Both the position numbers and the translations under genes were made by a program. Below are positions 20,573 to 42,816 of a DNA stretch of 64,000 nucleotides, piece after piece (the first letter of the stretch is position 1; every line of letters starts with the position of its first letter). The notes under the pieces were generated by a model. The model ran no database searches and was not told where the DNA came from. It saw nothing but the letters and a program-made list of their open reading frames with translations. The stretch is from positions 21,204,001-21,268,000 of the forward strand of contig CAIIXF020000001.1 in assembly GCA_903813345.2 (NCBI GenBank), given 5' to 3'. This DNA comes from Owenia fusiformis. Its lineage: Eukaryota.

Positions 20573-23500
20573 TCATTGCTCCTCATCCTCGTCATTGTTT
20601 GCTGTCTCAGTGATAGGTCTGAAGTTGAGAGTCCCACTTCCTCTATCTGGATCTGGCATCCTGAATATCCTTAGCTCTGGACATACTTTTAACTTACTGA
20701 AAACATGATATGTACATGTTTATAAATATATTTTAATCTACATATGAAGCATCAATTAAGTTCTAGCCTTAATCCAAAACATGAATATATATGTATATAG
20801 ATAGCCTTAAGGAGTGTCAATAGATGGCGAGAAATTCAATCAGTGGGTTGGCTTGTTAAGTTAACCATGTAAAATTACTTCAATAATTTTTGTTTGTGTG
20901 TTTTCTCGAGATATTTTACTTTAGTGCCTGAAATTAAACCTGGACACATGATTGGTCTATAAATTAAAAATATGTCAAAGTGTTTCTAAATGTACAGACA
21001 AATTGTCCAATTGTTCAAGTTAATAAATGTATGGACAAAGCCAGGTACAATGAAGGACCCACGGTCCTGTGCTCACACAGTTTGGAACCTTCAGAGGAAT
21101 GTATATCCTGACTTTCAAACAAAAATATTGATTTGGATTTGTAGTCTCGAACTTTGAGAAACTTAAATAGCACAGTTGTGTGACCTAGTTTGATGACCTT
21201 TGACCTTGAAAATTTTACTTAGTCAGAGCTCAGTAAGGTCTTTTGTGATTAAGCTGACCAAAATTTACATCCAAAAATCAATTTGAAAAATCAACTTTTT
21301 TGACCTTTCGAAGGTCACTGAAGGTCAACTAAAGGTCAAATCCTAAAACTAATGTCAGATTTGAACTCCTGGCAACTTGTAGATGTAAATCATTGCAAGA
21401 AATGATCAAGTATAAGGCAAACTTTGAGAAACTTGTCAATTACAAAACCTGCCATTGACTTTATACATGAGAAGTTTCCTGAAAATGACCAAGTCCTACT
21501 TTTTGTCAAATTTTATGGAGTAAACACCAAAAACTGTAATTCCAAGAGCTTTGAAATCTTCAGAGGACATAAGTTGCATATACAGCAACTACAAAAAGTT
21601 ATTTGAAAGTTCTACTTCAACAAAGTGTCTAGTATTTACAGAAAATTTGACTTTTTGACGTCAAAATCCGCAATTTCTCGGAAACCGGGCGAACTTGGGA
21701 AATGGCGATGATAGGTCAAATAGGCATTATGGATATGCATAAAATGAATGTGGCTATGACTCAATCCGAATAGCAGTTTTAATTTGTGCGGCCAATGTTG
21801 ACGGACGGACCAACGGACGGACGGAAGGACGGACGGACCAACGGACGGACGCCTGGTCGATCCCATAGGCTCACTGTGTGAGCCAATAAAAGCTTATTTC
21901 ATGCACTGGACCACGACTGAGCGCATTTCATACCTCATGTCCTGAGGGGTGAGAAAGATAAACTGTTTATCCAAGTTCTGTTTTGCCATTCCCAACATCA
22001 TATTCATAGAGATCTGTCTGTTAATTGCATCCTGAAATAAATACATACATACTGTATAGAGGTTTCAATCAGTCTTTTGTCTAGCATACATCTAGCAGTA
22101 ATAAAATTTACAACTTAAACGAGACCTGATCAGATCTTTGTTCTAGTCTGCCCTTGCATCTATAAAGATATCAAGTATGTTGAACTGATCAGCGATTTTC
22201 CCCAGAATTTTGATGACAAGATTAAGCTTAAGGAGGCGCCCAAATGCCGACCAACCCAGACACACTAGATGACAAAAATTTAGTGAGATAAAAACCAATT
22301 TCAGTCTAATTGCAAACGTATTGGTACAATCACACAAATTTCTAGTAATGTAAAGTTCAACTTACCATGAAAACGTCAAACTCGTCAAGACACCTGAATG
22401 GAGACTCCATAGCCTGCCAGAGACTCAACATAAAACACACTGTAGAGAAACTCCTTTCTCCTCCAGACAGTTCCTTGGTGTCTTTTACCTCAGAGAGCGC
22501 TCGTTGTTGTTCTCCTGCCCTCGATGCAGGCTGTACCTAGAATAATACCATACAGACATATTAATGCAATGATCATACAAGGGTGTCTCTAAAAATGGAG
22601 TCTTATCACATCTTTTTCTATTTTATAAAACCAACTTTAAGTTTGTATGTTAAATAATCTTATCCCATCTGATTGTTGTGCTTTTTGAGCTAGAAGCAAA
22701 AAATGAGTTCAGACTTGAGGGAAATGCATCAACACTTGAAACATTTCAACTTTATGAACATACTTAGATAATATTGACTCAGGGGTAAGGTTTATTGCTC
22801 TGAAGATTTTAGGTCCCTACTATGGATCATAAAATAGAATATGAAAAAGTATGTGATAAGATCCATTTTCTCTTTTTCATATGTTGAATACCATTTATAA
22901 TGAAAACTGATAATTCAACCATGTGATATTGAAATGTTTTCAGACGTTATGATACTGAATAAGAAAAGCTTTGAAATATAATTGAATAATAATTTATTAT
23001 TATCTTCATTTATAGGTTAGGTTCAATTATCATAATATTTAAAAAATTGACAATTCTTAGCTAGTACAGGGTGTACTAAAAAGGCTATTAGGTTGACTGT
23101 TCAAAATCACATCAAGACCTTCATATGACAAGTGCAAGTTTGTCTGCAGAGATGGTAGCCATTTGGACCTTGTTCCTTAAATGGCCAGGAAATAGGCCAT
23201 ACACATCCTAAAGTGATGAAACTTTGTCAACTTATAGAACATTGAACTAACTTTAACTATGCCAAAAAGATCAGTCAACTCTGTTGTTTAAAAAGATATG
23301 CATTGTTAGTTTGGTTGCACTTTTTGGTACACTCTGTACATACTACATAGCATACATGGAACAATACACATGCATATTTAAAAGTTTTATTCAATGGTAT
23401 TACACTAATCTAGCTAAAGCATTCTCCCAAATGAATTGCAGCTTGTCAGCTTATATGAGAAAATTATCCCATTAAAATATAGCAAGTGGTTTTTGAAGGG

Positions 23501-26500
23501 TTTTCATGCAATCTAAAACGGAAGTGACAAAACTTGTGCAGCTGTCTGGAAGAACATATTATTTCTGTTGTGACTTTCTTTGTATAAATCAACAATAGGT
23601 TAACATAGAAATGTATAAACTAACATGCAAATGAACAGACTTATTATAAATCATGCCTAAAAATCAACAACAAACCAATATAAACATAAATTGCATTACA
23701 ATGAGTGTCGGCTAAAAAGGTGCTGAACTACATATTATATGAAACACATTAACAGACACACAGGCAAACACACTTGAGTACAGGGTGTCAAATAAGTCTG
23801 TTCTCCCCCCTTAACTTTTTTAATTTAGAAATAACATAGAGTTGGTATATATCATCTTCAAGGGAATTTAATTTGCTGATCACACACCAAATTACAGAGT
23901 GATTGGTTAAATTCTAATATTTTTGGAGTATTTTTAGTGATGTCCATATTTCACTTTTTAATAGTCTGTATGTCTCCCCCAGCAGTCCGGATTGCCTCAA
24001 TTCTACGAAGATATGATCCTGTATAAATCATTCAGAACGTTTAATTTTGGCTGTAATCAACTATTTTGTGATGAAAGATGCCCCTGCTTCAAAAGCTCCC
24101 CTGAATGAAACACATTTTACTCTGTAACGATATTGAGAAACATCGAAATCACCCAATGTTGGCATTGTCACTGCAGTATCAAAATTTCATTTTCATTCAC
24201 TATACCTTGTAATTTTACTTGTTTTGACGTAATCAAAGGTCAACTAGAACCTTACAAGAAACATTGTAGCAATTTTATTAGGAGAAGTTTATGATTGATT
24301 TTTTGAGGGTGATCAGCATTTTCCATAAGCTTCAAAATGATATATGGGAAAGTATGATCAATTTAAAGATAAAAAAGTTAAGGGGGGAGAACAGACTTAT
24401 TTGACACCCTGTATAACAACATCAACAAGAGATCTGAGAGGAAAGCAACTTAAGGTTATATATGTGGAAGAGATATAACAGATAACTATGAACAAATGAA
24501 GTTAGGAAATCTTATTTGAAGTAAATGTGTGGATGACATTAAAAGGAGACACTGCGTTTATCGATGAAAAGGAATAAAAAATTTCGAAACACATCACTCA
24601 CAGTCAAGTGAATACTACAAAAAACTTCTGAAGTAGAAAACAGCATGAGAAGAAATCGGTTATGACACATGCACTGTTTACCCTGCAAAGGTGTTTTTAA
24701 ATTACTTTTGAACGAATAGATGGCATATTGGTTAACTCTTAATAAGGCAGTATGAATGATCTATATAGGAATTTAGGACATGATAAACATTTTCGATAAC
24801 AATTTTACAGAATAGAGAAAATTTTTTGACTTTAATATAATTGAAATTTTAATATGGCCTGTTTGAGGTGTTTTTGGTGCCAAACCAAAGTTTGAATACT
24901 ATCAACCCATTTCAAATACCAGGACGACGAAAAGTTTTTATTTAACTAATGAACACTGAAAAGTATGCAAAGCCTCCCTTTAATCATCAACAGGAAAGAA
25001 GCAGGTTGATTAAAGGTAAAATTCAAACAGGAATAATTCACTTCAACATCACAGACTTACATGCATTACTATCATCTCTTTACGATGATCAAAGCGTAAT
25101 TTTCCAGCGAATTCACGTTCTTGGAGATACTGGTTGAAGCTATATTTAGTTCTAAGTGCAATAAACTGGCGAAACTCATTGTAATGCGCCTTTCTGTTCA
25201 TCATCAATTTGTCAAGCTTCTGTAACATATAACATAAAATAGGTTTAACATATAATAAGGAGATGTAAGAAGGATGAAGATGTGATGGGACAGTCACAAT
25301 AGACAGTGATCTCCCCAACAACAGGGGGTAATACTCCCTTCAGAAATTTTGAAAATTAAATGGCACCATATTGAAAATCTGTCTGCACACTTTCAAAAGC
25401 ATTAAATATTGAGATATTCTGAAGATAATGCTTCCTTTTAAGAATAAATAAAAAAAAAGATATTTGAGATATTTCGACGAGATTAGGATAATGCATCCTT
25501 TTGAGAAGAAATACCTGGGAAGATCACTGATGTGTGTTAGTAAATAAAGTACAAGAGTATAATGCGTACCAATACATAAAAGGCATACAGAAGCAAAGCA
25601 CAAATAAAAATGGTACTTGGTAGAAAACATGTAAAAAACAATCACATAAAAAAACTAAAAAAACTAACCAAACATTTCCGTTTTTTGAAATTGCTATTAG
25701 TTATGTGAAATATCAATTCTGATGCTCAATTAGAGCTTGAATTAGTATACTGAAAGAAATAAAAAAAAAAAAAAAAAAATGCAAAGATTCGAAATTCAAA
25801 ATGGAGGATTTAGAGTGTTTGAGCAAGCCACAAATGTTCAAATGGAAAAAATGTGATATTCTTAGTTATGAAATCCATTGAATTTATAATTGGAAAAGCT
25901 TTAATTCCATTCTAGTTTATGATTCTTGAATTCTGATTGGCCCATATGGAGTGACAAGGATGCGATACAACATTATATGAGAGACTAAGAGAACAGAACA
26001 GAATGAGTGTGAAATACACTATCAAGAAGCGAGACAGAAGCATAAATTAAACTCTCCATGCAATTTTACACTGAGTTGTCCATTATTGCTTGCTTACTAT
26101 AACATCAAGACTTTTGCCTTTGTGGGTAAACTTGAGTTTTCCTGAATAGCCATTAACAATACAACGACAACTGAAAAATTGTGATGTGCGATATGCCATG
26201 CTCAGGAGAATTCTGTTGTACATTCTGCCTCTCTTCTTCATAGCCATGTCCAATGCCTGAAAATAATTATCTGGCTACAATGTAATAGTTACTTGGATTA
26301 TTATGAAGAAACGTGGGTTTCCTACAAGAGCATATAGCACAAGCATAAAGTGTGTAATTATACACACGCAAAATGAGAATTGTTCAGATATTTCAAGCGT
26401 CTTTGGGTAAAAGAGCAGAACATTTTACATGTAGGGTTGCAAATAACAAAGGTCATATGGAAACAGGTCACAAAGTAAACCCTGCCTTATATCAAAGTTT

Positions 26501-29500
26501 ATACCCTGTAATTAGAAAAAATAATCAAATTGTGCTTTATAAAGCAATTCTCCTGTGTTGTGTGTCAATGTGTTAACCTATAGGCTACTCAATCATAAGT
26601 ATGATCCAACAGATTATAGCCCTACATTTTACACTATGTGCATCTCTTTTATTTTTCTTTGTTGGTATAATGTGTCACATGGTATAACATGTACTTTAAT
26701 CTCTAGGATACTACCCAGACTATATTCCAAACTATAGCCTTACAATGTGAACAATGTCTAAGGACTGTTTTTTGTGGTCAAATCTCATCTTGTATTTTTT
26801 CTGGTGTGTATTGTCAAGTTGCATTGCTATGTATGAAACTTTAATTCTGTACACTATAGACCTCCTAAAATCCAAGTACCGCTCCGTTCTCAGTGCCAAA
26901 CTGTCGTCCACTGCCTAAATAACAAGTTTAACATACAAATGCATTCATAAATGTGACCTTTTTGACCTTAAAACTTTCAATTATATTTACACAAATTATT
27001 TAATAGAGACCAGATTTTGATGATTACCTACATAAAGAAAATGTGTCATACTTACATGTACAGTAGTTACATATTTAACATTAACAAAATCATTCTATTA
27101 TTTTGAAGTTATCAATTTACTAAACAAATAAAAACATGCTTAAAATTGAATGTCTTCGAGTCTACAGTATCTGATAATTACTTATAAAGTTTCTTGTCAA
27201 ATTATTGCTTTATTACAACGAGTTCCACAAGTTATCACTGACTATATGTTGCTATGGTAACAGATATTGCCAATAATCTGTTCACTCTTGAGACAACATG
27301 TTTATGTGTGTTTCAAGTCAATCTTAAGTTTACTTCTCTAAATTATTGCAAATTACAAAAGTGTAACAATTGTTACAGATGCCAACACAGAATTCTGGTC
27401 ACTTAACAGTTGGAGGCTATAATAATATAATGTAACAATGTAATATGGTGTGATTCTTCAAGAAAAATAGAACTCAATTTGAAATCAATTTAAATACAGT
27501 TTAACATTTCAAAAAGCTTGAAGTAAAAGAGATTGCAATAACTCACCTTTAGGAAATTTTCCTGTTGCTCCACTTCAAGCCTAATCCGTTCTAACGACTG
27601 TTTCTTCTCATGGTACGCTCTTGTTATTTCATCATAGCTTCCTTTGCTGGAATACATGAGACTTTTGTTAAAACAATTCTTAATAGACGTTTCCGATAAA
27701 TCGTGCATCTTTTGATCCATCAGGGAAACTATAACTTATTGGTTTGATTGATGATGTCATTGGCTGTAGGTAGCAAACTGCCCATTCGAAAATGGTATTA
27801 ACTTTTTGCTAATTTTATAAAAGTACAACCTATGACATCATCAATCTAGCCAATATATTGTGGTTTCTCTGATGGATCAAAAGATGGCACGATTTATCGG
27901 AAACGTCTATTTTTATTATGGAGAGAGGGTAACAGGGGCTTTAGACAAGAAAAAGACAAGGTATTAACCAGCAAAATGTCACCACCTGACAATTGTTACA
28001 TATGCTATATGTTACAGACGCCGAAATGTCATCCACAAAAAAGTTGGAGACTACTTCTGGTGGTGACATAATTCTACTGATATACTGAATATAGTTAGAT
28101 ACCAATAGATAGTAATCCATTTTGACAAATACAATGGCCTGAACACAAAGAATGCAGCAACAAAAATGATTATTTCTTCAATTTCAGTCAAACCCACAAA
28201 ATATGTACAGAAGTTACATCCTTATTGTTGAGACATCCATAGACAACTATTAAAATGCATATACAGTATATATCAAATCTCATAGCACTAATCAATCTTA
28301 ATGTTTTGTGAAGCCACTGCCCCCTCACTTAAACGTGCTTCTTTAAAACAGTTACAGACATCAAACTGAATGCCAGTCACAAAAACAGCCGCAAAAACAG
28401 ACAAATTATCAATACCTCTTGGGGCCTGTTCTAAGGGTATTGGTACTCGTTTTGAAGGCTTATATTTTACAATATTAACTTGAGCAATATGGGACATCAT
28501 AGTGATGAGCTAAGTGTCAGGCCATAATGGATATTTCTGCCTGGTAATGTTTCAGGGGAAATGAGATATTATTCAGTGTGTATGATTTTCGTTCAGTTCT
28601 CGCTATTTCAGCCCAAGGCATAAACAGAGCTAATATACTAATAATCCCATTTCAGCGGGCGACATAGTGAAACCTTGAACCTCTTGACTTTGGCCCTTAG
28701 TCCAAGATCTCACTATGTAGCTCTTTAAAATGATATTCCATATTGGTATTATTACCAACATTTATCTCAAGGGCTGAAATCTTGGCGTTTTCATAATACC
28801 TTCTCTCCTCCAAAGCAATCCTTCTCTCTATCTGACTAATCTCACTCTGTATATTCTGTGGTTTACGCTTAACCCTCACCTCTTCACTGACCTGCCTAGC
28901 CTTTGCCTCACTCTCCTAAAACATACATGTTAAACACAACATTTACAATTCTCGGTCTGTATATTCTGTGGTTTACGCTTAACCCTCACCTCTTCACTGA
29001 CCTGCCTTGCCTTTGCCTCACTCTCCTAAAATATACATGTTAAACACAACATTTACATTTCTCACTCAGTATATTCTGTGGTTTACGCTTAACCCTCACC
29101 TCTTCACTGACCTGCCTTGCCTTTGCCTCACTCTCCTAAAACATACATGTTAAACACAACATTTACAATTCTCGGTCTGTATATTCTGTGGTTTACGCTT
29201 AACCCTCACCTCTTCACTGACCTGCCTTGCCTTTGCCTCACTCTCCTAAAACATACATGTTAAACACAACATTTACATTTCTCACTCAGTATATTCTGTG
29301 GTTTACGCTTAACCCTCACCTCTTCACTGACCTGCCTTGCCTTTGCCTCACTCTCCTAAAACATACATGTTAAACACAACATTTACAATTCTCGGTCTGT
29401 ATATTCTGTGGTTTACGCTTAACCCTCACCTCTTCACTGACCTGCCTTGCCTTTGCCTCACTCTCCTAAAACATACATGTTAAACACAACATTTACATTT

Positions 29501-32500
29501 CTCACTCTGTATATTCTGTGGTTTACGCTTAACCCTCACCTCTTCACTGACCTGCCTTGCCTTTGCCTCACTCTCCTAAAACATACATGTTAAGCACAAC
29601 ATTTACATTTCTCACTCTGTATATTCTGTGGTTTACGCTTAACCCTCACCTCTTCACTGACCTGCCTTGCCTTTGCCTCACTCTCCTAAAACATACATGT
29701 TAAACACAACATTTACATTTCTCACTCTGTATATTCTGTGGTTTACGCTTAACCCTCACCTCTTCACTGACCTGCCTTGCCTCACTCTCCTAAAACATAC
29801 ATGTTAAAAATAAACCTTTACATTTCTATTTTCCCTACCAATTTCTTGAATTACACTTGGGATATGTTAATAAGCTATACAGATGAACACAATGTTTTCA
29901 AAATCAATCATATTCTTCAAATCCTGAAATTATTTTCCTAAAATATTGATTTTAAAGAAGACCCTTTAAGATTACTTATTTTATATGATTCTTTGCAGTG
30001 ATCTATAATATTTATTTCATCATTTAAAACAATGATTAAATTAAATAGTTAATATGAGTAACGACATGTCAACTGAAATCCGAAGATTATGGTGCTGGGG
30101 AATTCAACAACTTTTAAGGAAGTGGAAAATTGGGTCTTGACCTCGGAAGCTCCAATTCAAATAAGAAGTGAAGTTATTTTTCATACTCCAAGAAAGCCTA
30201 CTGAATACATGCACAAATCTTTTCTCAAGAATATTATAGGAATATAGGAAAACTCATCGATCTATGTATATTTTATGGATACAATTCCAAGATTTCAAAC
30301 AGTTTCTCATTCTTAAAATTTTCACCAAAAATTCCTGGCATTTTTGACCAAGAAATGTCTCACCCAACTTAAAAGAAATCTGACCACTTTTATGATAAAG
30401 ATAAAGTAGTTGTGTTACCTCTACGTGTTTCTTGTGGGCATCATACTCGGCAAGACAATCTTTGATCTTGGCCTGATGCTCCTTCAGCTTGCCTTCATAA
30501 TGCTTCTTATCATGTTTAGCCTTCTCTTTGTTAGCACTAGCAGTATCATGGTCTTCCTGAAATAACAAATATTAAACTTTTGGGTAATCTTGGGTCAATC
30601 TCTTGTCAATTTTATAAATAAGGGAAATTCAAGAATTTTGCATGACAATTTGGATATCAAAATATTGATGAAGTTGATGCAAAGAATCGGGAGATCAATT
30701 CAATATATTCCTCTCTCCCACTGCTGCTTCTGCCTTTACATAATTCTAAGCTTGCACACAAACATTTTTCAAGAATTCAGTCTTAATCTAAAGTTAAGTT
30801 TAACATTAGATCAATTGTACAAACCTTTAGTTTTTCAACTTTTGTGTGGATCTCAGTGATCTTATCATTTATTGCTTGAAAACGTTGCTCTGCTTCTCTG
30901 CGCACTTTGTCTGTGGCGAGCTTCCTCTCATTTGCAGCTTCCAGTAGTTCCTGAAGCTCTGCCATTTTATTCTTGTATCTAGCTACATCCTCTTGCTGTA
31001 ACATGCACACAGCTTTGAAATTTCACCAAGTTTTGAGATTTGCATGTAATGATTATCAATGACTTTAATGTTCTCCCTATTAGAGAACATGTTTCAATAA
31101 TGTACCCAGTTTTTACATGTACTCGAAGAACTTTGATCTACAGATATTTTGTTACATGAGATTCTGCATGACTTAACTTTTTAAGCAATTTGAAAAATGT
31201 AAATAAATTATCATCCCATTAGAATCCTTTAGAAAACATGCTGCAATGTGTTTTTAGAAAGAATAATATATTTTCAGCATCCTCACCAGCACAAAAACAT
31301 CTTCTGGCTCTGGGTCTTCTTGCAACTCAAGCTCTTCTTTCTCCTAAAAAAACAAATGATAAATCAACACACATTTTACCCATTAACAAATATTTGCTAA
31401 TAAGAGTAGAATAACAAAGGTCTATCCATCAACGAACAACTATACATGGACAACTTACTGCTTGAATTTTCTGCAGCTGGTCCCTGATTTTCATAATTTC
31501 TGTCTCACTACGTCGTTTTTCCTTTTCTTGGTTATTCATCTGAACTGTCAGATTTCTGTTTTCTTGGTTAAGCTGCTTCATCTCCTGAGTGTTAACTTCC
31601 AATTCTTGCTTTGTTTCTCTAAAATAATGAGTGAACAGATTAATGTTGGCTTCAAATAAAATGTCAAAATGGTAATGGCCTTAAATATTGTGTTGGGGAT
31701 GGTGTCAAGATGTGTCCAGATGAGTTTTGAAAAAAAAAATTAGTCTCATGGTTTAAACTCGGGGTGGGTCGGGTCATAATTGTATGTTGATATTAGATAG
31801 GTTTAGATGTAAACTATTTCCCATAGTAAAATACTGTACTGTGACATCTGTTTCCAACTGAGTAATTGATTAAGTCAATGACATGGTACATTGCAGCCTG
31901 GTCCGAGGATCCCGACCCATCCCTAGTTTAAACCCCCAGCCCCACATAATGAAATCTGAAAATGTTGACTTGAAAATCAACATTTCTACTTGCAATAACA
32001 AGATTTACCCCTTCATCTAACAAAATTAACTTTGCTTTTCCACAACTGCCCTTAATATGGATATGCATAATGAAAATAGAAATGAAGAAGGTTGTCTTTG
32101 TCCCATTCAATATAAAATGTACAGACATGTACATGTAATAACTAACCTGATTTCATCTTCCACACTGGCTTTTAAGTATTTTGAATTTTTCTGATCGGAG
32201 GAGTAGTAACGGAATGAAGGTTTGGAGAGGACTTGATCTCCTTCTATGGTAAATACCTATAATATATACAAGAACACAAATGTGTACAAAATGTCCCCAC
32301 CAATGGGTGATCCCGTCATAATGGTTATCCTAAAAATGAGTAGACAAGACTTTACCAACACAATTTGAGGATGGAAAATCCAAAATGGCCACCTTAAAAT
32401 TTACCCAGAATGCCAAAAATTTAGTCAGTTCTAGATTTTCATACTAAGAAGCACCCCTGAAAATTTGAAATTGATCCGTCACACAGTTAACCAGAAAAAA

Positions 32501-35500
32501 TGTAAGCAAGACTTTACAGACAAGATTTTAGGATGAAAATCCAAAATGGCTGCCTTGACATTTACCCAAAATGTCAAAAAACTAATATGTTTCTAGATTT
32601 TCATACTAAGAATTATCCCTGAAAATATGAAATTGATCTACTGAACGGTTCACCTGAAAATGCGTAGACAAGACTTTACAGAGAAGATTTTAGGACAGAA
32701 AATCCAAAATGGCTGCCTTGATATTTTACGCAGAATGCAAAAAAAACTAATCAGATGTAGATTTTCATACTAAGAATCATCCCTGAAAATTTGAAATTGA
32801 TCTACCACACGGTTCACCTGTAAACGTGTAGACAAGACTTTACAGACAAGATTTTAGGACGGAAAATCCAAATTGGCTGCCTTGGCATTTACCCAGAATG
32901 CCAAAAAAACTAATCTGATCTAAATTTTTATACTAAGAATCATCCCTGAAAATTTGAAATTGATCCACCAAACGGTTCACCTGAAAACGTGCAGACAAGA
33001 CTTCACAGACAAGATTTTAGGATGGAAAAATCCAAAATGGCCGACAATAAAAAAGTGATTATAAGTTTTTGCTTATTTCTTTTTACAAAATCATCACATA
33101 TACCTACTGTTAACAATAACATAGAGTTTTACAAGAAAGTACATCTGAAATTATTTATAGAGCTACTAAATAGTTAAAGTATGAAAATCAAAAACACCAT
33201 TCAATATAATACAAAGTATTATCGCGCGCTAACTTTTCTTAAGACATTCAAAATGGCTGCCATGACTGAGCTAATAGGTTCAAAACCTATTCAGATCTAG
33301 AATGAAGTGAGCTGAACAAGATGTTAAAGTTTTAAAAGCAACTGTGAAGCCGTTTTTCTTAAAGTTTGCAGACAAGGATTTTAGCATTTGACTTCAAAAT
33401 GGCCGACAGGAAGTAGGTTTCGAGTTAAATTTTTTTCATCCATATCTGTATGCACTCATAAGTTATCAATGAAAATTTGAAGGTGATAACTGTAGCGGTT
33501 GTGGAGAAAACTCCCGGACGTACGTACGGACAGATGAACGGACGGACGCACCTAGGCCGACAATATGGCCCCACACTATGTGGTGGGGACATAACAAAAC
33601 AGAATATCGCACCCGATGAGCAATACTTCATAAGTGGGATTTAATCCAACTGGTTAATTTGCTGATTGGTCAAATTTTATCATTTTCCAAATTTTAATTT
33701 TCTTAATGATAAGAAACTTCCGTTTTGATAACATTTTGAAGATAATATGACAACTCACCTCCTTGCAGTTGTGTGGGGGATTGTACATCATTGTTTTCCT
33801 AGCAATCTCACTGCTGGGTATGATCATCACACACTCAATGGTACGCTAAAAATCAATTTTTTTATTGATATTTTTAACTTCTAAACAAAGCATTAATGTG
33901 CAAAATGTCACAACCTGCCATTTGTTACAGATGGCAAACACCTACCACCATCACAAAAAAGTTGGAGACTATATCAATGTTACCACTTGTGGTGGTGACA
34001 TAATAAAAACATAATGAAAGAGAAATTCTTCAGCGGTGGCAGCAATTTTTCGATAATCATTACTCAGTACACCTGAGGAATGTCCAGTCAGATTCAAAAT
34101 TTCTTTCTTAACCTAAGGAAATGTTAAAAGTATTGGTGTAGATTGGAGTGTAACTGTTTCCTAGGAATTTATTGTTCTTCAAGGGGTTATTTCATTGTAT
34201 CTTTTGTAGCTCACGCTAACAATTTCCCTCCACTGCCCTCCTTTTATTATCTCTCATATGGCTTACTCTTTTCAATTGCGCAAATCTCAATACGTGTTAG
34301 AAATCATTCTTACTTGATCAATGAGTGTGTTAATGATGACAGGGTCCTCTATCTCTAGGACATCTAGCACCGTATCGTACTGATCATGACGGGCTCGCTG
34401 AAACAATGAAACATCTTCAACTGTGAGTTGCATTGTAAATATGATTCATAATATTCAATGGACATTCAAGGTATCTCCATTATTACATATCTACGAGGGG
34501 TGACCAATAAGGAATGGACGCTTTTTTACACAGATACTTTTTATCGACCAATCCCTTTGATTTTCTTACCAGTGATACATCATTCAATCATCTATCAATT
34601 CTTAAGATTTGAAGACAAAATATGTAATACATGTTGATATATCCTTATTTCCGTGAAGGAGGTACAGGTATCCCGGGACTGACATTTACGTCACAAATTT
34701 ATTTTATAGCCAGTCTGGCATATTTCAGTTAGATTTGAACTTTTTGATATGCAACAAGTGTTGTGTTGTTTGAAATATTTTGCTGACTGATAACACATAA
34801 ACGGTGATGTCAACGTGTTGTATGGTTGGTGTTTGCAGTTAAATTTGAGAAAACATTGTGGAAGGAGGGGTTGGTGACAGAAGGGAGCACCCTACTCCAT
34901 AATGCACCTGTCAAAAGATTCAAAATGTCCAGAATACAATATCCCTGGACCTCAACTGAGCCCTTGGAGGGGCCCTTGGCCAATGCACCATTTTGTCCAG
35001 ATCTGCCCACATGTGACTTATTCATTTCTATACTTGTACATGTATTACTAATTTCTATAGAAAGGACACAGGTTTAATGACATTGATGAAATAAAACAAG
35101 CTGTGCCACTGCATCTTGCTTCCACGTCAGAGAATGGATTCGGTCTTGTCTCACAATCTTGGATTAAAAGGATGAGGAAGTGTGTTCCTATTGATGGAAC
35201 CTATGCAGAGGGCCCTGTAGAATGAATGTGGCATGAATAGAATACCACATAGTGATGATGAAATATTCAAAATCAAGTATGGCATATCAAAATGGCGTAA
35301 TTCATGATCATCATGGTTAGTTTTGTTCAGCCTGCATTCAATTGCATTGCTTGTTAAACAAGCTAAAATAGCTTCATAATGTGTGACATTATGTCAGCCC
35401 CAGGGTACCTATACCTCCTTCACGGAAATAAAGATATTACATGTTTTGCTTTCAAATCATCGGAATTGATAGATAATTGAATGATGTATCACTGGTGAGA

Positions 35501-38500
35501 AAATCAAAAGGATTGGTCTATAAAAAACATCTGTGTAAAAAAGTGTCCATTACTTATTGATCACCCCTCGTAGATGTGACAACCATCAAAAATCAAAAAT
35601 GATAGAGATTTACAAATTTTCGAAGACAGTTTACCCAAAGAAGATTCAGAAATAAATAGACTTGTAAATCTCTATCATTTTTGATGTTTTTAACACTTAT
35701 TAACATACATTCGAGCCACTAAAAATAAATTGAGAATTGTTTTAGTTTGTTAACTGACTGTTTGTTAACTATACCTATGTGTATTCTGACTGTAACATGC
35801 TCTTCAATTTTCAAGATCAACATCATTGCTTAACTTACATTTTGTGAGACGTCATAGACATTCTGTTTAAATGCCCCTACAATGGTAGTTGGTGTCTGTC
35901 CTGGTGGGCAAGCACGCTTGAATATTCCTTCAAGGACTTGGTTATCATGGTGATCATGTACACAGAAGGACTTCATAAGGTTTTTTAAGCAGCACTCTAT
36001 TGCCAGTGCATAGTCTTGGTTCCTCAATTGCATACAAGCACCTACATATATTGAACACATGTTAATGCTGAACCAGAACAACGGCAACGCCAAAGCGTAG
36101 CGAATCCCATCAAACAGAAATGGCTGGCATTTTTACAAACGAATAGCAAATATCATAAAACAACACACCAGAAAGGCCACCATTTTCAAAATGGTTGCTC
36201 ATTAGCGAAGTTGTCACCAGAAGAAATAATGTGCTTTTAAGTAGCCACCTCTAAAATTTTTGAAAAATCGCACACGTACTTGTAAAATAACACACATAAA
36301 AATGGTGGCCATTTTTCAAAATGGCCCACTACTCCCCAAAGTTTTATTAGACAATGTGCCATGCTTAAAGTATTCACATATCAAATATGAACAAAATCGC
36401 TCCACTACTTTTCGAGTTATAGTAAAATACGTTAAAATGGCGGCCATTTTTCAAAATGGCCACTGTCTACCAAAAGTGTCATTAGATATAGACAGCGTGC
36501 CATGCTTATAGTATTCACATACCAAATATGAACAAAATCACTCCACTACTTTTCGAGTTATAGTAAAATACATTAAAATGGTGGCCATTTTTCAAATTTT
36601 TTTTCAAAATGGCCGCCTTTTACCAAAAGTGTCATAGGACAGTATGCCATGCTTATAGTATTCACATACCAAATATGAACAAAATCGCTCCACTACTTTT
36701 CGAGTTATAGCAAAATACATTAAAATGGCGGCCATTTTTCAAAATTTTTTTCAAAATGGCCGCCTTCTACCAAAAGTATCTTTAGACAGTGTGCAATGCT
36801 TATAGTATTCACATACCAAATATGAACAAAATCGCTCCACTATTTTTTGAGTTATAGCAAAAATCGTAAAATGACGAGTAAAGGCCGCCATTTTCAAGAT
36901 GGCTGCCATGTGCTTCTTTAATATCTACATTTGTAGCATTATTAATGTCCTTTATAATTCTTTTACATTTAAAACATATTGCTATTACAGTTTTACATAT
37001 TACACCTAAATTACTGTAAAATCGGCACTAAAATGGCCGCCATTTTGAAATGAGTGGCCATTTTGAAAATCTGCTTTCGAGCAGAACTTCTACCCCAATA
37101 GGGTATATGTGTACAAAATATGAACAAAATCGGGCCAACGGTATTTGAGTTATTGCCCGGACGGACGGACAGACGGACGGACGGACGGACGGACGTACGT
37201 ACGGACGTACGGACGGACGGACGGAGGCGTTCCCTATATCCCTCCGAACTTCGTTCGATGGGATAATAAATACAGTAGAAACTGCTAAGTGGAACACCTA
37301 TGTAAAAGGAACATGTTATTTAAAGTCCTGCAGTCAACGGACTCCATGTTAATGAACCTATGTAACATGTGATTTATGGAGCAAAAGCTGGCCACTGTTT
37401 TTTTCTTTCTGAAATAATGAGGTAGTTGACAAAGGGCAAAATAAAATAAAACCTCTATTTGATCAAACATTTGTCATATATCATAAATTGAGCAACAAAA
37501 TTCATATGAGACCAGAAACTGCAGCATGTCGATACTTGTAAGGTTAGATCCCCACTTGGGTGAACTGACTTTTCACATCAGCCCTAAGCACAGGATTTCA
37601 TTCTGTGTTTTCTTTAACTAATGATTTGAATTTACAGATAAATTCACAATTTATTCAAAACTATCATTTTTCACCCAATTGAGAAAAAATCTTAAAGAGC
37701 GCACTCTTCCAGGTGAGGTCTTACCCAATGGACCAATTGGCTTCTTGTGAAATCTGCCCTGTTGGTGTGCCTGGTTTATAAGATTCTGCAAGTCTGGCAT
37801 CCAGGTTCCAAATCTCTTCAATCTGTCTTTACTAGAAGCCTCAAGGTCCTTCAAGAATCGCTTCTTTTGTTCTATATTATTCTGCAGGTCTCGCTCCTGG
37901 CGTCTGGAATATTTAAATCGAATGACAAACTATTACAAACCATCACCCACAGATTGAGGAAAGTTATAAAACACAAGAACCCCAGAAAGCTGAAATAGTA
38001 TCACTGACCCGCCTAAAACCCAGGCCACACTCCAAATTATAACAAGATTTTTATCGATGCAATAATAGAGATTTATATAACAATAATTCTTACTAAAAAA
38101 ACTTTGATTTGCCAGATACCAGTCTACCTACTTTTTGCCATAAGATTCCTCTTTATATCTGGTAATTGCCCCAAGATATTGTCTGACTTCATGTTCCTTT
38201 GTGGATTTCTGAGCTTCCAGTATTGCCATCTGTCCCGTTAGTTCTTCGATCTTTCTCTCCCTTACTGCCTTCTCGGTGTTGATATCACTGACACTGGAAA
38301 ATACATACATATACATACAATACAGGTTACATATGATCAATGTTAATTAATCATTGGTGTGAATTCATTCTTTTCCATGACTGAATGCATGATAAGAATG
38401 ATTGAATAGTGTAAATCCTACTAATAATTGGTATGAATCCTTACCTTGATTGAATGGTGTGAATCCTTATTATGAGTGGATGGTGTGAATCATTACATTG

Positions 38501-41500
38501 ACTAAATGGTGTAAATCCTGATCCTGATCGAATAGTGTAAATCCTTTCCTTGATTGAATAGCGTGGATCTTTACCAAATTGTGTAAGTCCATAAATCCTT
38601 GCTCAAATGGTGTGAATTAGTGTGAATCATTACATTAACTGAATGGTTACCCTGACTGAATGGTGTGGATCCTTACCTTGATTGAAGGGTGTGGATTCTA
38701 TCAAGAGTTTCCTGTAGATCCCGCCCAACAGTTGTGATTTTACTTTGCAGCTTTTTTGGTTCGTACTGAAAGGTCAGTGCAAAATCAAAATAGATAATAT
38801 ATGGGCACAGTGACAATATGAACCAAATAAACAGAGAAACAGTACTTTTCAGCTTGGCTGTTGATTTTAAATGATCCTTACATTAGGCCTAATATACTGA
38901 ACTGACACATGACAATAGGCACACAAATGACTTAGAGACATAACACTGTCCACAAAATGCCACAATGTGTGCTCTGTATGCTCATATAGCAATTTGTTTC
39001 CACCAAACATTCTCATGGAATTGGAACATTAATTTGATATCCTATTAAAGCCATATATGAAAGCAATATCCCTAAATGTAGATATCTTACATTGACTGCC
39101 TGGCAAGCTTTCTTAGCTTCCTTCAGCTCAGCATTTGCTCTATCATGCTCCGGTTTATACTCCGTAACTTCTCCACTGATTGCCTGAAGCTGTTCAGTTA
39201 TTTCTTTGTAGCATGTGCTATGTTCATCAACAACTTCCTAAAAAACATTGATTTTGCTATATTACATCAACTTGAGAAGTGTTTTGTAAAAGTGTGATTT
39301 CAAATGATCGATCCACATTTTTGTTGTAGCTCAACTAAAGAATTTATTTAATAGGTATGAAAGTATATGCAAGGTGCATATTTTGCAAGTTTCAACTTTC
39401 AAGGAAGTGATCATTTTTGACAAAGGAATGATTAACAAATAATTTGATTGGTACTTAGCTCATTTTAAAATTTTCCAAACATTTTAGGCTGAACTTACAT
39501 TAAACTGAAACAAAAATTAAACAATAAACCTGTGCTTTCTGGACTGCAGCCACAAACTTTGGCAGTCTTGCTTCTGCAGTCTTGTGCTCTTTCTCTTTGA
39601 TATCTCGGACCTGAAAGGTTAATTACAATTTTTATTTAATGTACGGAATCTTCTTTCTTTGTGCCAACTAACTTGGGGATGGTATCAAAATGTCAACAAA
39701 TGTGAAAGAATAAACTCCATTTAATTAGGGAGGGGGGATAGATGAGAATTTTATTTTTAAAGAAGTTGATTTTTAAAAAACAAAACTGAGTCCAAAATTT
39801 AACTTTAAGCTTTAAGGGGGCAGGGGGATCAAACCAGAATTAAATTAACTCTGTTTTTCCACAACTCTATCAACATCACTTACAATATTTGAATAGTTTC
39901 ACAATTCTGTAAGTATACTTCAAAATTCTATATATAGTATACGTAGTACTTTAATTATAAACTTATCTTGTTTTGAACCATATTATGGTTTCTTGAAAAC
40001 AAGATAGTGTCCAATATGCTTTTCTTAATAAAATTCTTTTCTTGTCTCTCATGTACTGCAATACTCTTCCCATAGATTAACTTCACGTAAAATGCTTGTT
40101 TACACACCTCTCGCTTCTCATTCACCATAGCCCAAGCCAATTGATTGTGCAGTCCCTCAATTTTCTTCTTCATTCCAGTAAGAGCTTCACAGGCGTCGTA
40201 TCTCTCCTTGCATTTGCTCAGTTCATCCTCCAGCTGAGGCAAGGACTGACAACATAGCAACAACAATTATGAATGTAATGACTGGAGTCCATATTCAATG
40301 TACAGTATTAGCAATCTTAAATAACAAAAAGACAAAATCCCTCCCAATAAATTTTGTATGTACCCTATGTACTTGGTAATGAGGTTAAAATTAACAAATA
40401 ATTACAGAGACTTTTGTATTTGATCATCATGATTTAGTCTCAACAACTAGAATTGCCATGGTTTGTTTGCCATAGTGCAATGCACAAGAAACTTGATAAT
40501 ATTTCAACATTAACACAAGGCATCAACATGCAAGATGTCACCATCTGCCATTTTTTACAGACACCGATGAACACCAAACTTTGAACACTGTTGGAGACCT
40601 TGACTATAACATTAAAATAATTCCAGCTGTCCTTTCAGCTGTTTCTTACCTTCTTCTTGGACTCAACTATATTCTGGGATATACTTTTAAGTTCGTTGGC
40701 ACTGGCATAGTCATACTTCATCTGTTCTAGCTGAGTGGCACGTAGGAAAAACTAAAAGAAGTACATGTATGTTAACATGTGAGTGGTTACAGGGTGCGAC
40801 ATTAATATTGACCGATAGCATAATGTTTAGTGAATTTTCCCCGCACCAGCTGATAATTAGCAAGTGTAGGGAAATAAAATAACAATGTTATGCAGCTCTG
40901 ACCACACCCTGTTGGTGATATTTTGTATATATGGAAATTATTAGATAGACATCTCTCCCAACATTGCGATGCAATACAATATACAAAACTTTTATCAAGT
41001 GAATGTAATTCAATTTTAAAACATAAATGTTTTGTACTTACCTTATACTTGTCATTTGGGGATTTTGAGTTGAGGAAGTTTCTACTTGTGTCCTGGTTTA
41101 AAATGGCTACAGGATTCTCTACTTGAATATTGAATTGATCAAGAATCCTTGTCAACTCCTCTCGTTTCTTGGACACCTCTTTGCCTGAAATGAAACATGA
41201 TTAGCATGATTAAGTATATGATATACCCTGAGCTCAAAGAATAGTTCACAACCTTCTTATTAGGTGTGATCATTTAAAAATTGCATTTTGTGTTAAAACA
41301 TTTGTTTTCTGTCAATTGGACAATATTGACTTTGAATAATTACCTGACTTAGATTTAAGACTGTAACTGCTCCCGCCACTTGCTTGTATTGTCCGCTCTA
41401 CAATAATGGAGTCTCCATAGGCCTCATGTTTGTAGGCATCTGGCCCTTTATGGTTTCTCAGTGTCACTCTCACTTGTGCTGATCTACAAATATAAGCAAA

Positions 41501-42816
41501 ATAAATTAAATCTTTCTGTTATGCAATGAGTAAGAAGTGTATTTATCATCTCGGTCTTTTCCCCCGCATTTTCCTCAAATGCGGGCAAATTGCAAGTTCC
41601 CACAATTCTAATCAAAATTGGTCCAAAATATGCCAAGATGACAGCTTCTTTTTATCACTACTCAAATTTTAATAGGTGGGAAAATTCTCTTTGAGGTTTG
41701 AATAATTTTCCCTTTTCAATGAATGCAAATGTATTATTAAAAGAGAGATAATTCAACGCCAAGTTACATTCCTTGATGCAGATTGAATTTGAAATGTTGA
41801 AATAACAATGCTATACTTACGATTTGCCATTCTTGATGAAGTTCTTGATGGATGAGCCTCTGTTGGTTGCTGATGATTTGGCACCAAGGCCAACAACTAA
41901 TCCTGAGAGAATTGCACTCTTCCCACCTACAAGAGCAATAAAACATACTAGATTACTCCACAGTTGAATGCCATGTGACAAATTACCCTAACAATAATCC
42001 AGTCCAAATAAAAAGGGTAAGATCATTAGGTTTATTTGATATAACCATAAGATTAGTACATGATACTCTGTTTAATTCATAAGTGTCACTGCTAGTAAAA
42101 TTGGTTTCAGGAAGATCTTCCTGAATATTAACAGCACAAGTCTGACGAAGCACTGAGAATATTCACAGGCAAGTCTGACCAAGCAATGAGAATATTTACA
42201 GCACAAGACTGACCAAGCACTGAGAATATTTACAGCACAAGTCTGACCAAGCACTGAGAATATTTACAGCGCAAGTCTAACCAAGCACTCAGAATATTTA
42301 AAGCACAAGTCTGACCGAGCACTGAGCATATTTACAGCACAAGTCTAACCAAGCACTTCGAATATTAACAGTACAAATCTAAAATAAAGTACTTACTTCC
42401 ATTTCTTCCAATGACAAAGTTCACTTGCGGACCAAACGTGAAATCCAGCTTTGTGTGACACATGAAATTCTTCAGAGATATATTCTCTACTATCCCATAC
42501 TCAGCCTCGTTCTAAAAGCATACATTTTACTTCATTTACAGTAACAGTACCATTTAAACTGTCAATCCATCAACAATGTTTGGACAAATGAAAACACAAT
42601 TGGTCTCAGCTCCTACTTTTGCTTCGTTTTCGAGGAATTTTGCACCCACTTTTTGGAAAAATCCAGAGACAGACAACTTACTTGCTTCGTTGTGCTGACA
42701 ATGTCACTACTTTGTGACAGGTTGTTGTCATCATCTTCACTATCAGATTGAAGCTCAGGTTTAGCTTTCTTGGAACCAGATGGTCCAGCATCTTGACCAT
42801 TCGATTTGCGTTTCAT
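20573..42816 (-). CDS. SMC6: Structural maintenance of chromosomes protein 6 (SMC5/6 complex), complete, ~1104 aa, 26 coding exons
   Basis: Exons, all GT-AG and phase-consistent: 42682-42816, 42397-42511, 41821-41926, 41344-41483, 41042-41184, 40650-40751, 40108-40245, 39530-39610, 39091-39237, 38677-38765, 38132-38293, 37725-37903, 35839-36041, 34314-34397, 33759-33845, 32147-32256, 31459-31618, 31287-31343, 30825-30995, 30419-30556, 28800-28915, 27547-27646, [one of 26744-26914 / 26098-26256 / 25061-25219], 22366-22536, 21934-22031, 20573-20696. Motifs: LKNFMCH, Walker [30 protein letters not shown], hinge PIGPLG, signature [13 protein letters not shown], Walker [21 protein letters not shown]. 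Confidence 0.96.
21035..21890 (+). mobile_element. HINE/Helentron-like element
   Basis: TGACCTT/AAGGTCA-rich core, (GGAC)n microsatellite at 21800-21850, terminal hairpin GGCTCAC...GTGAGCC. Confidence 0.6.
23067..23336. mobile_element. Tc1/mariner-type MITE
   Basis: TA|CAGGGTGTACTAAAAAG...CTTTTTGGTACACTCTG|TA. Confidence 0.65.
23781..24411. mobile_element. Tc1/mariner-type MITE
   Basis: TA TSD; TIR CAGGGTGTCAAATAAGTCTGTTCTCCCCCCTTAACTTTTTT at both ends. Confidence 0.85.
25061..25219 (-). CDS. SMC6: SMC6 exon 23c (canonical-looking variant), [53 protein letters not shown]
   Basis: 159 nt, ttacAG / GTAAGT, phase 0/0, open. Best resembles the vertebrate SMC6 segment before VQP...LSGGE (recalled, not aligned). 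Confidence 0.92.
26098..26256 (-). CDS. SMC6: SMC6 alternative exon 23b, [53 protein letters not shown]
   Basis: 159 nt, the same length as 23c, ttttcAG / GTAAGC, phase 0/0, open. Shares LD..M..R...YN.......RT...F..........GKL.F.H with 23c, without gaps. Confidence 0.82.
26744..26914 (-). CDS. SMC6: SMC6 alternative exon 23a, [57 protein letters not shown]
   Basis: 171 nt, atttAG / GTAAGG, phase 0/0, open. Shares D3, R9, Y13, FR, R23, K.RFDH.K and SLD with 23b/23c. Confidence 0.8.
27682..27911. mobile_element. Hairpin MITE just upstream of the SMC6 exon 22 acceptor
   Basis: ~80-bp inverted arms AATAGACGTTTCCGATAAATCGTGC / GCACGATTTATCGGAAACGTCTATT. Confidence 0.8.
28841..29825 (-). repeat. 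Nine-copy 110-bp tandem repeat made of the SMC6 exon 21 acceptor plus the first 75 nt of the exon
   Basis: Units start at 28841, 28951, 29061, 29171, 29281, 29391, 29501, 29611, 29721. They are near-identical, with two variants alternating in units 2-6; the last unit has a 6-bp deletion. Confidence 0.97.
32272..33598 (+). mobile_element. HINE/Helentron-like element with ~165-bp internal tandem repeats
   Basis: About 4.5 units (AGACAAGACTTTACAGACAAGATTTTAGG...AAAATGGC), an ACGG microsatellite, terminal hairpin CCCCAC...GTGGGG. Confidence 0.7.
34494..35570 (+). mobile_element. Mariner (Tc1/mariner) internal-deletion derivative in an SMC6 intron
   Basis: TA-flanked CGAGGGGTGA...TCACCCCTCG long TIRs. 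Transposase relics [18 protein letters not shown] (cf. YSPDLAPCDF) and [10 protein letters not shown]. Confidence 0.85.
36071..37269 (+). mobile_element. HINE/Helentron-like element with ~135-147-bp internal tandem repeats
   Basis: Tandem units, (GGAC)n/(GTAC)n at 37159-37225, terminal hairpin; near-identical flanks in the inverted copy at 49430-50082. Confidence 0.75.
38350..38700 (-). repeat. Degenerate ~26-bp minisatellite overlapping the SMC6 exon 10 donor
   Basis: Unit ~GAATGGTGTGAATCCTTACCTTGATT; the last unit is the real exon end and donor. Confidence 0.8.
42122..42380. repeat. 34-bp minisatellite (~7.5 copies) in SMC6 intron 2
   Basis: Unit GAGAATATTTACAGCACAAGTCTGACCAAGCACT. Confidence 0.9.

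Follow-up and report, generated by a model that had tools for sequence, protein, structure and literature searches.

The SMC6 gene of Owenia fusiformis, encoding an ATPase subunit of the SMC5/6 complex, carries three tandemly duplicated versions of a single exon (23a, 23b and 23c), each of which specifies the segment corresponding to the neck of yeast Smc6, a surface bound both by Nse4, the kleisin, and by Nse6, a loader subunit whose animal counterpart is SLF2. The gene lies in a stretch of 64,000 nucleotides (assembly GCA_903813345.2, contig CAIIXF020000001.1, positions 21,204,001 to 21,268,000 of the forward strand), referred to here as the window, in whose coordinates all positions are given. 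The existence of the cassette is confirmed, as are its expression and its evolutionary age, which is old, and, taken as a whole, the evidence is probably best explained by a set of neck exons that arose by tandem duplication and are alternatively spliced.

The cassette and its host gene

The gene and the exons that matter for the argument are arranged as follows.

20576..42816, minus strand: the Owenia SMC6 gene, annotated with 26 coding exons (tblastn of the annotated protein P0004 against the window)
27547..27646, minus strand: exon 22, constitutive, with the donor common to all three cassette exons (sequence, tblastn, and RNA joints from 27547 to 25219, 26256 and 26914)
26744..26914, minus strand: exon 23a, rarely used alternative copy, 171 nucleotides, 57 amino acids (translation, profile score, junction reads)
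26098..26256, minus strand: exon 23b, alternative copy mutually exclusive with 23c, 159 nucleotides, 53 amino acids (translation, profile, junction reads)
25061..25219, minus strand: exon 23c, canonical copy and main form, 159 nucleotides, 53 amino acids (translation, profile, junction reads, annotated protein)
22366..22536, minus strand: exon 24, constitutive, with the signature motif LSGGERS and the acceptor for 23b and 23c (open reading frame list, tblastn, joints)

A first-pass annotation made from the letters of the window had proposed three open exons of 171, 159 and 159 nucleotides in phase 0/0 with good AG and GT sites, lying between the end of exon 22 at 27547 and the start of the signature-motif exon at 22536, and its coordinates, frames, sites and peptides were all confirmed. 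Each copy is open, begins and ends in phase 0, and has AG directly before it and GTAAG after it, with the two alternative copies upstream of the canonical 23c. The introns around the cassette measure 487-2524 nucleotides and are all GT-AG, with neither a short intron nor a U12 site among them. Inclusion of two copies, or of none, would keep the reading frame, and no frame-shift safeguard was found here.

Judged by its sequence, the host gene is SMC6 and not that of another SMC protein. The C-terminal 217 amino acids of P0004 match human SMC6 with an E-value of 6.6e-54, yeast Smc6 with 1.8e-17 and SMC5 with 2e-08, and residues 860-1104 used as a query retrieved 1293 relatives at E<=1e-5, most of the source-named ones among the 120 listed bearing the name SMC6. 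P0004 also contains both GRNGSGKS (Walker A) and LSGGERS, and in its AlphaFold2 model the N- and C-terminal halves of the head are set apart by long helices. The Owenia annotation contains the canonical form only: P0004, the one protein that a word search with 23c brought up, is 100% identical across 23c and carries this copy alone, with ENFLK leading into KLDKLMM at one border and IVMH into VQPASR at the other, and its length of 1104 amino acids is what the first reading had expected of a protein with a single copy. Apart from a 110-nucleotide array described below, tblastn of P0004 against the window brought up no further duplicated exons in the gene.

The three copies are homologous SMC6 neck exons, tandemly duplicated. 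When scored on a profile of the homologous 53-residue stretch built from 119 non-Owenia SMC6 proteins (with E given for a search space of one sequence, Z=1), 23c reaches 69.1 bits, 23b 43.0 bits (E 1.9e-15) and 23a 39.7 bits (E 2e-14), and a phmmer search of 120 SMC6 proteins matched 118 with 23b and 117 with 23a, at the homologous position in the matches inspected. On its own, 23c also finds residues 920-967 of human SMC6 among solved structures (E 3.5e-06), where neither 23a nor 23b alone has a match at E<=10. The peptides are 28-32% identical to 23a and share seven invariant columns, while the identity of the DNA, 0.58-0.64 among the copies, has nearly sunk to the level of shuffled sequences (about 0.55); the pair 23a-23b, at 0.64, is the only one that stands out, 2 of 200 shuffles being as high. 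The agreement of open frames and profile scores exceeds what chance would give: only 1072 of 22082 windows of 159 nucleotides on the gene strand are free of stop codons.

Usage and exclusivity in RNA

Three stranded Owenia RNA-seq runs (X13, X14 and X15), together with contigs from a fourth (X7), were aligned on 22300-27700, and splice joints were listed from 3 reads upward, a modest depth at which rare forms could escape. The junction reads of the three runs were distributed as follows.

Exon 22 to 23c: X13 101, X14 63, X15 52; total 216
Exon 22 to 23b: X13 15, X14 10, X15 4; total 29
Exon 22 to 23a: X13 4, X14 1, X15 2; total 7
Exon 23c to 24: X13 46, X14 34, X15 32; total 112
Exon 23b to 24: X13 10, X14 6, X15 1; total 17

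Junction reads had been named beforehand as the test of the cassette, and they are present for both alternative copies: 23b was entered from exon 22 by 29 of 252 reads and left towards exon 24 by 17, and 23a was entered by 7 of 252. The canonical 23c, with 216 of 252, is the main form and accounts for about 85% of transcripts. The share of 23b varied by run between 7-14% of acceptor and 3-18% of donor reads, and that of 23a amounted to 1-3% of acceptor reads, with read depth over both halves of the exon. Among the X7 contigs, one spans 22, 23c and 24 at depth 293.5, and a second, at depth 75.9, connects 23b with 24. All spliced reads have their first mate on the plus strand, as expected in a stranded library for a gene on the minus strand. 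Among the sequence differences listed (with 401 further ones besides), those in 23b lie at 26128, 26131 and 26134, all third-codon and synonymous, with F, K and L kept.

Neither joints between two cassette exons (23a-23b, 23b-23c or 23a-23c) nor a direct joint from 22 to 24 occurred among the joints listed in the four runs. Joint inclusion of several copies, the pattern that would have spoken against the cassette as first proposed, is thus absent among these joints. Because both 23b and 23c are joined to exons 22 and 24 and no cassette-cassette joint was listed, these two exons are mutually exclusive at this read depth. The earlier claim of exclusivity, which had covered all three copies, accordingly holds for 23b against 23c, whereas for 23a the data extend to its acceptor junction (7 reads). 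In sum, 23a is a rare third copy that is entered by splicing and is doubtful as a working exon.

The same swap in other species

Swap isoforms are already present in the automatic RefSeq annotation of 23 other species, and the cassette is therefore not private to Owenia. From the 120 listed clusters (1293 matches in total), 30 were opened, picked for having several members or names with "isoform", and their listed members were scanned with the segment profile. In 17 of these 30, a proportion which on account of that choice is not a frequency and gives only a lower bound on taxonomic spread, RefSeq isoforms have exactly this block replaced by a diverged copy of 53-58 amino acids between identical flanks, and the ends of the swapped block match the Owenia exon borders (F, I or L, and any residue before the block; VQP after it). 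The 23 species comprise 13 bivalves, 6 gastropods, 1 nemertean, 1 hemichordate and 2 crinoids.

Bivalves with the swap: Mytilus (4 species), Crassostrea virginica, Magallana gigas, C. angulata, Ostrea edulis; further Saccostrea echinata, Ruditapes philippinarum, Mercenaria mercenaria, Mya arenaria
Gastropods with the swap: Gigantopelta aegis, Haliotis (3 species), Pomacea canaliculata, Littorina saxatilis
Others with the swap: Lineus longissimus, Glandiceps talaboti, Antedon mediterranea, Anneissia japonica
Clusters with the canonical block only: a second Haliotis cluster, Tubulanus, Branchiostoma, Biomphalaria, Octopus, Nematostella, Dreissena; further Asterias, Mizuhopecten, sharks, Callorhinchus, Xenopus, sturgeons

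The 13 clusters of the last line refer to annotated isoforms, and are in this respect weak evidence of absence. Two tandem copies of the segment were found in 3 of the 120 proteins (Mytilus californianus X4, Anneissia japonica and Pinctada imbricata), and in models with both copies the alternative one lies upstream of the canonical one in molluscs (M. californianus, Mercenaria, Pinctada) and downstream in crinoids. In other RefSeq models, Gigantopelta X3 and Littorina X3 (P0144, P0185, P0189), the whole block of 53 amino acids is gone. Such block-skipped isoforms amount to a head that lacks the first C-terminal hairpin and the last turns of the neck.

Age and rates of evolution

The first-pass annotation had further taken the intact frames of these paralogous exons as the mark of an old duplication, a view supported by the profile scores given above as well as by a tree, a topology test and a leave-one-out comparison. 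A maximum-likelihood tree was computed from 54 segments and 53 columns, for which the tool itself cautions that columns are few and that long branches meet. In this tree, 17 lophotrochozoan alternative exons, including Owenia 23a, form one clade with modest support (80/66), the alternatives of Mya and Glandiceps are each placed next to the canonical exon of the same species, and those of the crinoids make up a separate clade. In the approximately unbiased (AU) test, a topology that unites alternative with canonical exons separately in each of 13 lineages was rejected (log-likelihood difference 88.8, p-AU 0.0007, LG+G4), and one uniting 19 lophotrochozoan alternatives in one clade was not (p 0.246). 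When each lineage was left out in turn, the alternative exon scored higher on the alternative profile of the others than on their canonical profile in all 9 of 9 lophotrochozoan lineages, by margins of 0.4 to 45.5 bits. The difference between the alternative and canonical profile scores is +5.3 bits for 23a (36.1 against 30.8) and +4.7 for 23b, as against -12.2 for 23c and -6.6 to -19.9 for the ambulacrarian alternatives.

Given the features that alternative copies from different lophotrochozoan lineages have in common, we read the pair of canonical and alternative exons as old within Lophotrochozoa. Owenia has probably doubled its alternative copy, and the ambulacrarian pairs may be separate inventions.

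The two kinds of exon differ in pace. Across nine species pairs, conservation of the canonical exon equals or exceeds that of the remaining protein, with 100% identity among three Mytilus species. Alternative copies for the most part change more quickly than the remainder, being less conserved in 8 of the 9 pairs: identities are 0.81 against 0.97 in Mytilus, 0.56 against 0.87 in another pair and 0.42 against 0.77 in crinoids. The oyster pairs are about equal in this respect (CraVir-MagGig 0.91 against 0.89; MagGig-SacEch 0.84 against 0.84, marginally lower for the alternative exon at 0.836 against 0.841), oyster alternative copies being 78-91% identical, near the protein average.

Position of the swapped block in the Smc6 neck

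Each copy encodes the end of the C-terminal coiled-coil helix (about 34 residues, called the neck) together with the first beta-hairpin in the C-terminal half of the head. According to PMC10636319, the neck of yeast Smc6 consists of residues 237-271 plus 949-978, and Nse6 contacts N963, N966 and D974 there, in competition with the helix-turn-helix of Nse4. PMC7297730 reports binding of Nse4 by a peptide of S. pombe SMC6 (residues 960-984), for which L965, L972 and R975 are required; the contact between Nse4 and the neck was confirmed in a DNA-bound structure (PMC9191643). The C-terminal fragment of the Owenia protein aligns with yeast Smc6 without gaps, which makes the cassette the equivalent of yeast 952-1004 and reproduces N963, N966 and D974; cassette positions 1-27 coincide with part of the yeast neck helix (949-978), and the three Nse6 contacts fall on positions 12, 15 and 23. 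The placement of the cassette at the site of Nse4 and Nse6 binding, already suggested in the first reading, agrees with this alignment and with PMC7297730 and PMC10636319. As judged from spacing, the S. pombe residues L965, L972 and R975 would correspond to yeast L950, L957 and R960, and hence to cassette positions -1, 6 and 9.

Position 9 is R in all 29 canonical and all 19 alternative rows (R936 and R930 being invariant). At position 6, M or L occurs in 28 of the 29 canonical rows and in 15 of the 19 alternative ones, the remaining rows having V or I. Position 15, homologous to the yeast Nse6 contact N966, is E in 18 of 29 canonical rows, whereas K, F and E occur in 6, 3 and 3 of the 19 alternative rows, so that charge is often reversed there from E to K. 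R35, G39 and F43, each present in 29 of 29 canonical rows, are found in only 5, 12 and 6 of the 19 alternative rows, respectively. The fold nevertheless appears alike: in AlphaFold2 runs with a 72-row alignment, a helix, a loop and two strands were predicted for both the oyster alternative isoform and the canonical Owenia protein. In the former the helix extends to 962 and is followed by strands 967-973 and 978-984, with a predicted local distance difference test score (pLDDT) of 71-85 over residues 921-980 and of 62 in the block 981-990, which holds the last two cassette residues; in the latter the helix extends to 955 and the strands span 958-965 and 970-977, with pLDDT 72-90.

Under the mechanism that we propose, splicing would exchange the surface of the Smc6 neck for which Nse4 and Nse6 compete. 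The residues needed for binding of Nse4 would be kept (R at position 9, M or L at position 6), the charge reversal at position 15 would alter the surface facing Nse6, and the outcome would be SMC5/6 complexes with a different balance of the neck gate or a different preference for partners.

Control of exon choice

A search for pairing between introns, which the first reading had suggested in the form of docking and selector sites, produced nothing above chance. The longest perfect complements measured 10-13 nucleotides, and 18-98 of 100 shuffles gave complements as long; the 25 longest of 103 inverted pairs share no common arm. This negative result for a docking-site and selector arrangement of the Dscam type is weak, as it comes from one species and does without intron conservation.

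Weighing the alternatives

Several observations count against alternatively spliced neck exons as the explanation, or at least against parts of it. For 23a there are 7 acceptor reads and no joint from its donor among the joints listed, as might be seen in a decaying copy, and the introns showed, as just described, no pairing above chance. Exclusivity may not be strict everywhere, and may leak, because RefSeq models that hold both copies exist (M. californianus X1-X4, Mercenaria X1, Antedon X1). In the tree, 23b has a long branch (1.94) and a canonical row as its neighbour. The AU test rejected neither a clade of the three Owenia exons alone (p 0.241) nor one of all 22 alternative exons (p 0.266), so that, on 53 columns, the Owenia copies themselves may be either old or young. 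The assignment of the Nse4-binding residues to cassette positions leans on their spacing, and the variability of R35, G39 and F43 could equally be compatible with relaxed constraint. Lastly, a functional consequence of the neck swap, be it a switch of partners or escape from antagonists, is hypothetical.

The alternative that survives best, even if it is not an especially likely one, holds that the working pair consists of 23b and 23c only and that 23a is a dying third copy. The latter draws 1-3% of acceptor reads and lacks a listed donor joint, has lost the G39 found in every canonical row, carries 4 extra residues, and gave 0 protein matches among 1.84 billion representatives and none in a word search of longer proteins. 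Nevertheless, it retains an open frame of 57 codons, a good AG and a good GTAAGG site, and 39.7 bits to the family profile, it is covered by reads over both halves, and it groups with alternative exons from molluscs and the nemertean, some of them likewise 54-58 amino acids in length.

Somewhat less probable, and in our view unlikely, is a duplication of the Owenia copies within the annelid or oweniid line, in which case their likeness to the mollusc alternatives would be due to convergence or long-branch attraction. The unrejected Owenia-only clade is compatible with such an origin, as are the long branches flagged by the tree tool, including the join of 23a with Pomacea, and the placement of the alternative exon next to the canonical one of the same species in Mya and Glandiceps; moreover, the identity of 23a and 23b at the DNA level, higher than in 198 of 200 shuffles, suggests at least one local duplication. 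Against it stand the rejection of independent origins in all lineages, the higher scores of both 23a and 23b on an alternative profile built without Owenia, and the order of the exons, with the alternative upstream, which matches the M. californianus, Mercenaria and Pinctada models.

That 23a and 23b are relics of an old exon duplication, spliced in as noise into proteins without a role of their own, is improbable: low acceptor usage, the missing structural matches, the faster evolution in 8 of 9 species pairs and the loss of residues invariant in canonical exons would all fit, but frames, phases and splice sites are intact despite DNA identity near background, 23b has clean joints in X13, X14 and X15, at either end of the exon, and in an X7 contig, its three listed variants are synonymous, and alternative exons are open and swapped in 23 other species, with oyster copies about as conserved as the protein on average and features common across lineages.

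The reading as tandemly duplicated and alternatively spliced neck exons can also be carried further, to a scenario that is speculative and rather doubtful. Two neck modules would have existed since at least the lophotrochozoan ancestor, a slowly evolving canonical one and a faster alternative one that keeps kleisin binding and changes the surface facing Nse6/SLF2; splicing would then provide two kinds of SMC5/6 complex, for instance one for housekeeping and one for the germline or for action against selfish DNA, and in Owenia the alternative side would have expanded to two copies.

Other features of the locus

28840-29827, intron upstream of exon 21: tandem array of 110-nucleotide units, 9.0 copies, 95% matches
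23779-24413, intron between 23c and exon 24: 635-bp element with perfect 44-nucleotide inverted terminal repeats at its ends
27187-27548, start of the intron after exon 22: probably another repeated element
47788-48595, plus strand: open frames with RRM-like sequence in the open reading frame list, a neighbouring gene on the strand opposite to SMC6

The units of the array repeat the acceptor site and approximately the first 70-75 nucleotides of exon 21; residues 850-874 were matched nine times there by tblastn, and each upstream unit ends in a donor-like GTGAGA. The 635-bp element looks like a multi-copy transposon of the miniature inverted-repeat transposable element (MITE) type; RNA reads fall on both strands over 23748-24471, at a depth of 35-65, with many mismatches and with loose ends at 23778 and 24413. 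Over 27187-27548 the gene-strand RNA depth is 4-8, with many low-agreement loose ends at 27385.

Significance

Mutually exclusive exons that arose by tandem duplication are familiar from Drosophila (Dscam1, 14-3-3 zeta and Mhc) and from vertebrates (FGFR2 IIIb/IIIc, PKM 9/10 and SNAP25 5a/5b). The SMC6 cassette resembles these clusters in that adjacent homologous exons of equal or near-equal length and the same phase are used one per transcript, as seen for 23b against 23c, and replace a defined structural unit. It differs in its host, an SMC ATPase, and in the unit swapped, a kleisin-binding neck, as well as in the means of control, since neither competing RNA pairing nor a short intron, a U12 site or a frame-shift safeguard was found. 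Variants of SMC complexes are otherwise known from paralogues, such as SMC1-beta, REC8/RAD21L and NSE4A/NSE4B, which likewise diversify the interface between SMC protein and kleisin for special contexts; these, however, are separate genes, whereas the SMC6 cassette concerns one exon of one gene.

The first-pass annotation knew of no such cassette in SMC6. A search of the literature, with subscription journals outside its coverage, found no prior description of one either, but the same block is swapped in the RefSeq models named SMC6-like X1/X2 of molluscs, Lineus, Glandiceps and Antedon, with two copies there as opposed to three in Owenia.

For yeast, PMC10636319 describes a "neck gate switch", in which Nse4 closes the ring and Nse6 displaces Nse4, and treats the use of this gate across the tasks of SMC5/6 as an open question. 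The switch involves the same stretch of Smc6 as the cassette. Yeast has a single neck with competing partners; in Owenia the neck itself comes in alternative versions. The conserved natural pair of necks in many invertebrates offers ready-made variants of the gate for comparison, and a core SMC subunit can be diversified by the choice of an exon instead of the duplication of a gene.

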